IMG/VR virus record: IMGVR_UViG_2526164632_000040
DNA from: a virus
Taxonomy: Duplodnaviria > Heunggongvirae > Uroviricota > Caudoviricetes
DNA: 30,163 bases
Strand: one strand, 5' to 3'
Positions 2,907 to 5,377 of this stretch are shown here, in pieces. The translations under genes and the position numbers were made by a program. Numbering within the stretch: the first letter of the stretch is position 1; each line of letters starts with the position of its first letter. A model generated the notes under the pieces. The model worked only from the letters and a program-made list of their open reading frames with translations. It was not told the DNA's origin and made no database searches.

Positions 2907-3520
2907 TGAACCAACAATTATTTCAAAAGGCGGCTGGTATTAGCGCCGGGCTGGCTGCGCGCTGGTTTCCGCACATTGATGCGGCGATGAAGGAATTCGG
3001 CATTACAGCACCAGCGGATCAGGCAATGTTTATTGCTCAGGTAGGCCATGAGTCGATGGGGTTTAGCGCCGTAGTTGAAAATTTTAACTACACACCATCT
3101 GCGCTTGTGGCGACGTTCGGAAAGAGGATCACACAGCAGCAGGCTGATGCCCTTGGCAGAACATCCGGACATGCAGCTCGTCAGGATGCTATTGCCAATC
3201 TTGTGTATAGCAACCGGCTGGGTAACAAAGCACCCGGTGATGGCTGGAAATATCGCGGTAGAGGATTAATTCAAATCACTGGCCTCCATAATTATCGCAT
3301 CTGTGGCGCGGCGCTGAAGTTAGATCTGGTGACTTCACCTGAACAACTGGAGCAGGATCTACAGGCCGCGCGCTCAGCTGCATGGTTCTACACATCTAAA
3401 GGCTGCATGGTCTACGGTGCCGATATTAATCGTGTTACGCGCATCATTAACGGCGGTCTGAACGGTATTGAGGATCGTAAGATTCGATACAACAAGGCGC
3501 GGGCGGCGCTGCTGGTATGA
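2906..3520 (+). CDS. endolysin, glycoside hydrolase family 19 (chitinase-like lysozyme)
   Basis: 204 aa with GH19-type motifs (FIAQVGHES, YRGRGLIQITG, INGGLNG). Lies between holin and Rz. Confidence 0.7.
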   Translation: MNQQLFQKAAGISAGLAARWFPHIDAAMKEFGITAPADQAMFIAQVGHESMGFSAVVENFNYTPSALVATFGKRITQQQADALGRTSGHAARQDAIANLVYSNRLGNKAPGDGWKYRGRGLIQITGLHNYRICGAALKLDLVTSPEQLEQDLQAARSAAWFYTSKGCMVYGADINRVTRIINGGLNGIEDRKIRYNKARAALLV

Positions 3521-3978
3521 AGACGAGTTATTGGGCGCTCATTTTAACGTTTATTGCTTGTATTGCTGGTGGTCTTGTCTGGTCAGCTAATCATTACCAC
3601 AATAAAGCCATTGAATACAAAAAACAGCGCGATGAAAACGCTATGGCATTAGATTCGGCTATGGCGACGATCTCTGATATGCAGAAGCGTCAACGTGACG
3701 TAGCAGAACTCGATGCCAGATATACAAAGGAGCTTGCTGATGCTAACGCCACTATCGAAAGTCTCCGTGCTGATGTTTCTGCTGGTCGTAAGCGCCTGCA
3801 AGTCTCCGCCACCTGTGCAAAGTCAACGACCGGAGCCAGCAGCATGGGCGATGGAGAAAGCCCAAGACTTACAGCAGATGCTGAACTCAATTATTACCGT
3901 CTCCGAAGTGGAATAGACAGGATAACCGCGCAGGTTAACTACCTGCAGGAGTACATCAGGGCTCAGTGCCTGAAATAA
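3517..3978 (+). CDS. Rz-like i-spanin
   Basis: 153 aa with N-terminal transmembrane anchor and coiled-coil-like periplasmic part. ATGA overlap with the endolysin stop. Confidence 0.65.
   Translation: MKTSYWALILTFIACIAGGLVWSANHYHNKAIEYKKQRDENAMALDSAMATISDMQKRQRDVAELDARYTKELADANATIESLRADVSAGRKRLQVSATCAKSTTGASSMGDGESPRLTADAELNYYRLRSGIDRITAQVNYLQEYIRAQCLK
3740..3916 (+). CDS. Rz1-like o-spanin lipoprotein, embedded in Rz in the +1 frame
   Basis: ORF 3713..3916 lies wholly inside Rz. Internal ATG 3740 has AGGAG 8 nt upstream. Product has a signal peptide ending in lipobox VSAC and a proline-rich mature part. Confidence 0.6.
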   Translation: MLTPLSKVSVLMFLLVVSACKSPPPVQSQRPEPAAWAMEKAQDLQQMLNSIITVSEVE

Positions 3979-4007
3979 TTTTTTTGCAAATCACAAAGTC
4001 CATTTAA

Positions 4008-4034
4008 TGAGCCTCGCGATGCGGGGCTTTTTTA
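4008..4034 (+). terminator. rho-independent terminator after lysis cassette
   Basis: Hairpin GCCTCGC-GAT-GCGGGGC followed by TTTTTT. Confidence 0.5.
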
Positions 4035-4180
4035 TGTCCGCAGTAAACGCGCTTCACACGCGCGACTTATGAACACAGAACCTTTCAGGATGACCCTTGA
4101 GGATGCCGGTTTGGTGATCGGTACCTTTCTGTGGGCCGGAATCCTGTGTGACAAGGTTCATCACTAAAAGGTAATTACTG

Positions 4181-4711
4181 ATGAAGTACCCAACAGTTAT
4201 TGTCAATGGTGTGTCCGTTCGTGTTGATGAGGATGGACGCTACAACTTAAACGATCTCCATGCAGCAGCAGTTGCAAATGGAGAGGCTACAGAGCAACAG
4301 CGCCCAAGCCAGTTTTTGCGTAGCGCGCAGATAAAACGCTTCATAAAAGCACTGGAGGCCAAAGTGCAAAAAAGCACTTTGGAACAAATTCAGCCACTTA
4401 AAATAATCAAAGGTGGTGCAGAACCAGGTGTGTGGGGTGTTGAACTTCTGGCAATCAGATATGCAGCATGGATTAAGCCGGAATTTGAAATCGAAGTTTA
4501 TGAAGTTTTCAAAACGGTTGTCCGTCTCGGCGTTGGCGCAATGTCCCGTCTGAATAGAATCGATCACATCATCAATACTGAAACCAAAGCGATAAGCCAG
4601 TGCGCAAGCCAAATGGCTAAGTGGGGCGTTGGTGGGCGAAAAAGATTGCTTCATGTTGCACGTGAGAGAGCGGCAAATGAAGTGCAAATGTATTTGCCCG
4701 GAATGGTGTGA
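4181..4711 (+). CDS. KilA-N domain protein
   Basis: N-terminal region matches the KilA-N pattern as recalled (VDEDGRYNLNDLHAAA..., RPSQFLR, GVWGVELLAIRYAAWIKPEFEIEV). Isolated gene flanked by non-coding DNA. Confidence 0.6.
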   Translation: MKYPTVIVNGVSVRVDEDGRYNLNDLHAAAVANGEATEQQRPSQFLRSAQIKRFIKALEAKVQKSTLEQIQPLKIIKGGAEPGVWGVELLAIRYAAWIKPEFEIEVYEVFKTVVRLGVGAMSRLNRIDHIINTETKAISQCASQMAKWGVGGRKRLLHVARERAANEVQMYLPGMV

Positions 4712-5026
4712 TTTCGCAGGTTAATCCAGTTTTTGCATTACGGCAGTACAGCGAAACAACCCAAGCCAGTAAGTGGGGAAATAACACTGGCAGCCACTGA
4801 AAGATGAACCTCCAGCCTTATGGCAAAAAAGATTCTTTGTGGTGGCGGACTGATGGAAAGACATCGGTTATTGCAGAGGCCATTCAATGAGTGGTCTCGA
4901 CAATGGCTTATACCCTGCACGGGATAACTTAACTGATATCCATTTTAACGGATAAACGGAGCCAATAATGGCAGAGAATGTCGGCATTATGGCAATGAAA
5001 TTTGGATAAATCGGAGATTAGTACAT

Positions 5027-5377
5027 ATGCCGCCACGAATCCCAAAAGCCTGCCGTGTTCGCGGTTGCCGCCATACCACCACAGATCCGTCAGGCTATTG
5101 TGAAAGCCACAAAAGCGAAGGCTGGAAGCAATACAAACCTGGACAATCCCGTCATCAGCGCGGCTACGGTTCGAAGTGGGACAGTATCCGCGTGCGCATA
5201 TTGAAGCGTGACAAAGGCCTGTGTCAGTTATGTCTGCGTGCTGGTGTGGTGCGTGAGGCGAAAACCGTTGACCACATCATTCCTAAAGCGCATGGCGGCA
5301 CTGATGCCGACAGTAATCTGCAGAGTCTGTGCTGGCCCTGCCATAAGGCGAAGACGGCCCGTGAACGGTTAAAGTGA
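5027..5377 (+). CDS. HNH endonuclease (terminase-associated)
   Basis: 116 aa with Cys-rich N-terminus and HNH motif (DHIIPKAHGG...NLQSLCWPCH). Sits immediately upstream of terS/terL as in cos-type HK97-like phages. Confidence 0.75.
   Translation: MPPRIPKACRVRGCRHTTTDPSGYCESHKSEGWKQYKPGQSRHQRGYGSKWDSIRVRILKRDKGLCQLCLRAGVVREAKTVDHIIPKAHGGTDADSNLQSLCWPCHKAKTARERLK

Follow-up and report, generated by a model that had tools for sequence, protein, structure and literature searches.

The window analysed here, the whole 30,163-nucleotide (nt) stretch held as IMG/VR record IMGVR_UViG_2526164632_000040 (Caudoviricetes), is DNA of an Escherichia coli lambdoid prophage. On its plus strand lies an intact, ATG-started open reading frame (ORF) of 176 amino acids (4181-4711) that encodes a KilA-N domain protein and carries an AAGG Shine-Dalgarno (SD) sequence 9 nt 5' of the ATG. 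Genes for the Q antiterminator, two holins, a GH19 endolysin and Rz (3517-3978, with an embedded Rz1) are found on its 5' side, and those for an HNH protein (5027-5377), a P27-type TerS, TerL and the portal on its 3' side. A preliminary description, made from the letters of this DNA alone, had placed a KilA-N gene between the lysis and the HNH/terminase genes, and the neighbours and coordinates are as it gave them. So are the sizes of the flanking gaps, namely 202 nt from Rz to the ATG (3979-4180), of which ~145 nt separate a T-run from the ATG, and 315 nt from the stop codon to the HNH gene (4712-5026). Its portrayal of the 5' flank as plain non-coding DNA, on the other hand, needs revision: this segment holds a conserved structured leader of ~110 nt (4072-4183, plus strand), which ends at the ATG. 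The gene itself is already known and annotated, and is ordinary on its own. The leader, judged from its sequence and those of its relatives, would be a conserved folded RNA that hides the ribosome-binding site (RBS), and is apparently undescribed.

A folded leader ending at the start codon

The leader is recognised by a covariance model (R1), which scores the window copy at 51.5 bits (E ~2e-9). The model was seeded from one subgroup of sequences because divergent subgroups were misaligned in plain MAFFT alignments, from which RNAalifold recovered 5 pairs only; a structure-guided Needleman-Wunsch alignment of the leaders proved too gappy for the same program. The model matches the 5' flank of almost every member of the KilA-N family, always ending at the ATG. 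In the window, all elements of the predicted fold lie on the plus strand: an outer helix, P1 (4080-4085 with 4167-4172), contains the SD sequence AAGG, and is followed inward by helices P2/P3 (4087-4099 with 4152-4165), a 6-nt bulge, GUGUGA (4146-4151), helices P4 (4100-4104 with 4141-4145) and P5 (4106-4110 with 4135-4139), and an apical hairpin (4113-4125).

Across an alignment of 59 sequences, 96.9% of the cells belonging to the 28 nested pairs are paired, versus 75.7% after shuffling and 40-52% with slid partners. Cells with changes on both sides number 275 (66 shuffled, 10-33 slid), the covariation score is 0.575 (0.207 shuffled, 0.04-0.09 slid), and compensatory both-side changes occur in 26 of the 28 pairs. 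P1, which holds the SD sequence, is 98.2% paired, with both-side changes in 4 of 5 pairs. When 48 divergent leaders are folded one at a time, ~45 are predicted to adopt one and the same long irregular hairpin; the window copy folds at -36.3 kcal/mol (z = -2.05). On the reverse strand the model scores far lower than on the sense strand, and pairing that tolerates G-U is specific to the sense strand. The bulge, GUGYGA(A) of 6-7 nt, is conserved in sequence across the leaders, as are loop nucleotides.

Superimposed on these nested helices is a pseudoknot, in which CACAGAA at the 5' flank (4074-4080, plus strand) pairs with UUCUGUG (4127-4133, plus strand), part of the apical internal loop and immediately 5' of the 3' strand of P5. 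In an alignment-free test, the helix formed by a leader's own flank and loop averaged 6.4 bp (-8.9 kcal/mol), versus 4.6 bp (-5.3 kcal/mol) for mismatched combinations, and helices of at least 6 bp were obtained from 86% of own and 21% of mismatched pairings. The helix measures 6-8 bp across leaders and occurs in 30 distinct core sequences, covarying examples of which include CGAGAG/CUCUCG, CCAAGA/UCUUGG, CCCGAG/CUCGGG and CGCAGAG/CUCUGCG. With P4, P5 and the pseudoknot set against P1, P2 and P3, ~16 bp each, a side-by-side fold would be sterically plausible.

An alternative helix, pairing the 5' flank with the 3' strand of P3 and excluding both P1 and P3, was found independently by RNAalifold and has 24 double-change cells versus 9.4 in shuffles, with one pair going from G-C to A-U. 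It lends itself to a reading of the leader as a molecular switch, riboswitch-like or responsive to a protein or small RNA, in which the pseudoknot would lock an OFF fold until a signal moved the 5' flank to the P3 3' strand, freeing the SD sequence and timing translation. In favour of such a device, the structure goes far beyond what SD masking needs, with its 28 nested pairs, its pseudoknot of 6-8 bp and its conserved GUGYGA(A) bulge. However, the alternative helix gains modest support in pairing (87% versus 80% in shuffles), and two of its six pairs never covary; the very varied cargo described below points to no ligand or binding partner; no Rfam riboswitch resembles the leader; and SD opening is mildly temperature-dependent. 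We consider a switch an unlikely account, and would be equally hesitant to see in the leader a new class of signal-responsive RNA switch that served temperate enterobacterial phages as a common "expression socket", timing interchangeable selfish or regulatory cargo. An RNA thermometer was also considered and set aside, as mild temperature dependence of SD opening was all that could be seen, with no specific support.

The structure might alternatively serve mainly in RNA processing or stability, for instance as a site cut by RNase III or RNase E, or as an element that cleaves itself, which would free the cargo from the late transcript, protect the lysis mRNA on its 5' side, or activate the cargo mRNA by taking away the anti-SD strand. 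An irregular hairpin of ~25 bp, interrupted by internal loops and carried on a polycistronic phage transcript, does resemble the substrates of RNase III, known ones being the T7 and lambda sites. Processing of RNase E type is reported for the transcripts of segB in T4 and of mobE in Aeh1 (PMC2988022). Against this, the location of the SD sequence in P1 with its compensatory changes, and the fixed short distance from helix to ATG over eight cargo families, point to translation initiation, and no Rfam ribozyme family was matched; processing as the principal function seems to us quite improbable.

Rfam 15 (4227 families, including C4, isrK, riboswitches and ribozymes) gave no gathering-level match at the leader, in the window or at 17 diverse loci. 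At E<=1 the only hits in the window, both far below their cut-offs, asX2 (4009-4087, minus strand; 26.5 bits, cut-off 70) and Proteo-phage-1 (4724-4795, plus strand; 23 bits, cut-off 42), are absent at gathering level from the 17 related loci and probably represent chance. No description of the leader was found in Rfam 15 or in the literature consulted, though it may correspond to an unnamed entry in a catalogue of 10,006 IMG/VR motifs (PMC10690425). No inspected record with a KilA-N gene in the same slot annotates it, that of phage HK106 marking the terminator only.

Modular context of the leader

The left edge of the slot is formed by hairpin 1 (4009-4035, of which 4009-4029 is the hairpin proper; plus strand), a structure resembling an intrinsic terminator, GAGCCUCGC-GAU-GCGGGGCUU and then a U-run, that was recovered by a terminator scan. 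Its 9-bp stem has 6 GC pairs ahead of the T-run and is a predicted terminator, and the identical sequence is annotated as rho-independent in HK106. A GC hairpin with T-run is found 150-220 nt 5' of the ATG in ~43 of 55 diverse loci, a set of ~55 drawn from one-genome-per-species data, and shows compensatory changes in its stem. The preliminary description had spoken of a lysis-cassette terminator; hairpin and T-run are there, but far from being bound to the lysis cassette they accompany leader and cargo to other positions in late operons. Between terminator and leader is hairpin 2, a small GC stem, CGCGC-uucacac-GCGCG (4048-4064, plus strand), which is conserved in alignments A4 and A5 and covaries weakly to moderately (84.5% paired versus 81.2% in shuffles; double-change cells 6 versus 1.2).

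The same leader is found before cargo of at least eight unrelated families: Rha, KilA-N, KilA-N with P63C, "Ant" of the P22_AR_N type, ANT/KilAC, T5orf172/GIY-YIG-like proteins and several HNH_3 nucleases. In phage POCJ13 alone, one copy stands before gp42 "Ant" (P22_AR_N with ORF11CD3), between lysozyme and Rz, and another before gp45 (Rha with ORF11CD3); in HK106 a copy stands before gp64 (T5orf172/MUG113), and others precede an HNH_3 protein with a helix-turn-helix domain and KilA-N proteins with P63C. On viral contigs the leaders were counted from two sequence-pattern scans, and all the figures so obtained apply among the matches listed. A complete ORF follows at SD-ATG distance after 219 of 241 copies. 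The cargo is most often Rha (86 copies) or KilA-N with ORF11CD3 (63), then KilA-N with P63C (19), Ant (16), HNH_3 (~14) and T5orf172 (~10), with a few copies before ANT/KilAC and others. A terminator-like hairpin lies within ~130 nt 5' of 211 of 232 leaders (91%), and in 200 of 216 cases (93%) the ORF upstream runs in the same direction. Every upstream neighbour that could be identified is a late gene, including Rz spanins (~117), DUF6246 (28) and lysozyme (16), and further tail tube, tail fibre, a gpK-like tail-tip protein and the tail assembly chaperone. The cassettes have thus been inserted after differing late genes (Rz, endolysin, tail genes), even within a lysis cassette.

Leaders of the window type occur in 806 of 5426 complete E. 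coli genomes (15%), at 2280 places and up to 8 per genome, adjoining genes annotated as KilA-N, Rha or antirepressor; O157:H7 strains carry several copies. At one further locus (L114:3575-3685) an orphan leader (61.9 bits), followed by an ORF of only 11 codons, lies directly 5' of a KilA-N cassette, and has the look of a socket that decayed or was emptied, placed in tandem with a full one.

Sigma-70-like sites are found in only 1 of 230 distinct terminator-to-ATG regions, as against 11.7% of shuffled controls, and selection against internal promoters is therefore suggested. A promoter within 3979-4180, the segment in which the preliminary description had proposed promoter mapping, did not emerge from a sigma-70-consensus scan of this part of the window, leader region included. 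These observations bear on the possibility that the KilA-N gene is a classical moron or a defence or exclusion gene expressed by the prophage, with its own promoter active in the lysogen and a terminator for insulation, acting in BstA-like abortive infection or in superinfection exclusion. A terminator directly 5' of the gene is what an insulated autonomous unit would be expected to look like, the slot accepts other conflict-type cargo, such as the ORF of phage Louie annotated as anti-CRISPR, and BstA defence proteins have a KilA-N-like domain (PMC8585504). Yet a sigma-70-like promoter is absent from the leader region of the window and nearly so from its 230 distinct counterparts, 93% of the cassettes, among the matches listed, are co-oriented with late genes inside late operons, and between the stop codon of the window ORF and the HNH gene nothing terminator-like was picked up by the terminator scan. 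Nor does the protein favour this reading, as it matches no PADLOC defence model and, with 176 residues and an ORF11CD3-like tail, differs from the two-domain, 307-residue BstA. An autonomous moron or defence gene therefore strikes us as a doubtful candidate.

The slot, its occupants and the KilA-N protein

The boundaries of the slot can be traced on both sides. On the left, phages share an identical Rz end and hairpin 1 whether or not they carry the leader, and in Louie the junction falls immediately after the T-run. On the right, a flank at 4739-4977 (plus strand), aligned in A10 with HK106, Louie, POCJ13 and ST104, is ~97-100% identical whatever the cargo, and BLAST finds the block at 161 loci, mostly at 95% identity or more. 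It contains, on the plus strand, a 28-codon ORF with an SD sequence, MNLQPYGKKDSLWWRTDGKTSVIAEAIQ (4804-4890), whose frame is interrupted by stop codons in some copies elsewhere, and an overlapping ORF of 22 codons (4887-4955). A 13-codon remnant of the start of DUF2560/orf80 (4968-5009, plus strand) diverges towards the HNH gene from a junction at ~4977; P22-like phages, HK106 and Louie begin their DUF2560/orf80 gene at this ATG (4968).

In gp45 of the Shigella phage POCJ13 (L169:1782-2324), the N-terminus MNYPTIVNG of the KilA-N family runs into Rha, and on this ground gp45 is taken to carry a recombination scar no more than ~9 codons into the ORF that follows the shared leader. Because the flanks are conserved whatever the cargo, and because of this scar, we infer that cargo was probably swapped by recombination between the conserved left and right flanks. 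The same features could be taken to mean that conservation concerns DNA only and that the fold as RNA is incidental, the leader providing, for example, homology arms or sites targeted by the HNH and GIY-YIG-like cargo nucleases when cassettes are exchanged: the flanks of the slot are nearly invariant, part of the cargo resembles homing endonucleases, and the scar in gp45 lies in its first ~9 codons. That reading would not predict compensatory double changes in 26 of 28 pairs, pairing that tolerates G-U specifically on the sense strand, or a pseudoknot covarying over 30 distinct core sequences. Because the leader pairs and the pseudoknot covary, it is unlikely as a sole explanation, and we hold it to be very improbable indeed.

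The gene travels widely. In E. coli chromosomes a 1.2-kb region around it is 100% identical, with the RefSeq product name "KilA-N domain-containing protein", and at least 80% of this region is present in 63 of 5426 complete genomes; the same gene is E. coli WP_000877024.1, with 100% identity in E. coli FDAARGOS_1059. Window positions 4011-4915 are ~95% identical in DNA to Salmonella P22-like phages (ST104 orf45, SE1, PS119 and MG40 "KilA"), where the gene also follows Rz, and ~89% identical to ST64B (sb54). Of the protein there are 458 homologues at E<=1e-3, within which a tight family of ~170-180 residues spans the Enterobacterales, full-length relatives extending down to ~31-47% identity; a first scan of viral contigs with the window protein returned only relatives of at least 90% identity, uninformative for covariation. 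Homologues at 70-76% identity occupy other positions in late operons, between endolysin and spanin in Plesiomonas and among tail genes in Enterobacter. Both are co-oriented with the late genes and have ~180-200 nt in front, and this 5' stretch, hairpin and T-run included, is conserved along with the gene. Conversely, the slot between Rz and terminase holds other genes in related phages, namely Rha (POCJ13), a T5orf172/GIY-YIG-like gene (HK106), the ORF annotated as anti-CRISPR (Louie) and DUF2560, in keeping with the earlier notion of a cargo position.

The KilA-N assignment, for which failure in profile searches had been named as the refutation, survives both profile and fold searches. Pfam KilA-N (PF04383) matches residues 9-113 (nt 4205-4519, plus strand) at 64.8 bits (cut-off 23.8; E 7.3e-18) and is matched by all 20 of 20 aligned members of the subfamily, and PHROG 129 matches the window protein at E 1.6e-60. 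An AlphaFold model (predicted local distance difference test score, pLDDT, 83.6) retrieves viral KilA-N proteins from BFVD at E 3e-11 to 1e-5, and among PDB structures its best matches are, weakly, the APSES domains of Mbp1/PCG2 (E 0.07-0.2). A sequence search of the PDB returned a MarR match only, at chance level; NCBIfam gave nothing useful, and PADLOC no defence family for the protein at E<=1.

For the C-terminal half, where a profile check had been proposed, the family has a conserved motif at residues ~121-175, IDHII..ISxCAxxMxKWGVGGRKxLL..EVQxxLPG (nt 4541-4705, plus strand), which in the AlphaFold model falls within two long helices (residues 100-148 and 153-171). By itself, the window protein matches no Pfam family in this region, ORF11CD3 (PF10549) included at E<=1, and BLASTP of its tail against an ORF11CD3 tail gave no match. 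PF10549 is, however, matched by 8 of 20 subfamily members (best E 1e-5), and hhalign of the family against the Rha-ORF11CD3 protein of POCJ13 gave E 2.3e-5 and a probability of 76%, collinear to the C-terminus. The tail is accordingly read as divergent ORF11CD3-like, and the protein as a putative "Bro-network" member combining KilA-N with such a helical tail. Our best guess is a DNA-binding regulator, or a factor of antirepressor type, expressed late, or else a selfish passenger.

Several features of the surrounding genes may be recorded here. Inside Rz, in the +1 frame, an Rz1-type o-spanin ORF (3713-3916) has a lipoprotein-like signal (…LLVVSACKS) and matches the position of the Rz1 annotated in ST104 and MG40. 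The HNH endonuclease gene (5027-5377) lies directly 5' of the P27-type TerS and TerL genes, an order that we take to be HK97 gp74-like, the HNH protein of such an arrangement being believed to help in cos cleavage; by this analogy the gene would be part of the packaging module, and not cargo. Just 5' of the window start, the same prophage has a second KilA-N gene (L001:1293-2102) of 269 amino acids, unrelated in length, in the nin region before DUF968. A covariance-model search did not find the leader 5' of this nin-region gene.

A probable cargo cassette of late operons

The reading that we prefer, with a probability of roughly 0.6, is that the KilA-N gene belongs to a swappable cargo cassette of the late operon, transcribed only by antiterminated late read-through and throttled in translation by its leader. 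Such a cassette would run from an intrinsic terminator through a small GC hairpin and a ~110-nt pseudoknotted leader, which pairs the SD sequence in its outer helix, to the ORF. Having no promoter of its own, it would be transcribed only when Q-modified, terminator-resistant RNA polymerase, arriving from the late promoter, passes hairpin 1. In a lysogen, terminator and masked SD sequence together would silence potentially harmful DNA-binding or nuclease cargo, and during lytic growth the leader would limit or delay translation of the cargo. Exchange of cargo would proceed by recombination in the left flank (Rz end, terminator and leader) and the right flank (4739-4977).

Several points weigh against this preferred reading. 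The pair counts come from an alignment fitted by the covariance model, which is biased towards the structure, although this bias is lessened by the slid controls and by the folds obtained independently from single sequences. The promoter scan addressed the sigma-70 consensus only, so that a weak, activator-dependent or alternative-sigma promoter is possible, and one leader subgroup does have a perfect TATAAT, if without a -35 element. Opening of the SD sequence is predicted to cost a median of 5.3 kcal/mol in the leaders and 4.4 in the window copy, versus 3.2 at ordinary start sites in the window, and the nested fold thus adds only ~1-2 kcal/mol relative to ordinary genes. Masking alone would be a modest brake, and would leave the extent of the conserved structure unexplained. 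Because that structure is so extensive, and the opening cost so modestly raised, masking would seem to be only part of what the leader does; it may also act as a switch, as a processing site or as a platform for protein binding.

Functionally, the nearest precedent lies in the way in which T-even phages control their homing endonuclease genes. These genes (I-TevI, segB, mobE) lie on polycistronic transcripts, have the RBS sequestered by a hairpin and an intrinsic terminator close to the 5' end, and are expressed at a low level or late; in T4 mobE and segF the terminator lies inside the 5' coding region (PMC2988022). The cassettes described here likewise pair RBS masking with a terminator, and some carry HNH or GIY-YIG-like cargo. 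The T-even genes are activated by a late promoter inside the hairpin, whereas sigma-70-like sites occur in 1 of 230 leader regions and none lies in the leader of the window. Late promoters of the T4 type are not known to play a part in lambdoid phages. Furthermore, the T-even hairpins are simple and gene-specific, whereas the leader is one conserved, pseudoknotted family found with unrelated cargo in temperate lambdoid and P22-like phages.

A second point of reference is the Bro network, in connection with which a study by Iyer and co-workers from 2002 is said to be relevant. The network is defined at the protein level (PMC10111431). The window protein probably joins two of its domains, and the cargo of the leader consists almost entirely of network members or associated nucleases; in the papers accessible, however, the network is described without a shared 5' RNA leader or defined slots in late operons. 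Immunity RNAs, namely C4 with P4 CI and isrK/seqA, control ant and other Bro-network genes (PMC10111431; Rfam RF01695, RF01394), and so likewise represent RNA-level control beside genes of this network. They are, however, processed RNAs of antisense type which act on separate targets in the immunity region, and neither Rfam model matches the leader. In a Symbiopectobacterium prophage (L113:202-390), Rfam isrK and C4 lie side by side ~3.5 kb 5' of a leader-bearing KilA-N cassette, distinct from its leader.

Two protein-level comparisons complete the picture. BstA of prophage BTP1, which acts by abortive infection (PMC8585504), shares a KilA-N-type N-terminal domain with the window protein, but has 307 residues and another C-terminal domain, whereas the window protein has 176 and no match in PADLOC. 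Classical lambdoid morons are units of promoter, gene and terminator (Juhala et al. 2000, as cited in PMC4104026). Like them, the window gene is optional between essential modules and variable among relatives; in its cassette, however, the order is reversed, with the terminator first, no promoter found, and no terminator-like site after the gene in the terminator scan. Translational-control leaders are themselves known, and what would be new is the leader as a pseudoknotted modular socket shared by cargo of the Bro-network and homing types.

Few phage genes without a known role are as common as those of the KilA-N, Rha and Ant types. On the reading preferred here, they would not be loose insertions, but would plug into a shared RNA "socket" of terminator, leader and masked RBS at defined slots of late operons. 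Such a socket would explain how lysis and packaging can stay undisturbed while unrelated cargo is exchanged, and gives a concrete handle on when and why these genes are expressed. It also adds a widespread and easily testable candidate RNA family. For annotation, the "non-coding" gaps that follow Rz or tail genes are worth checking for the leader.

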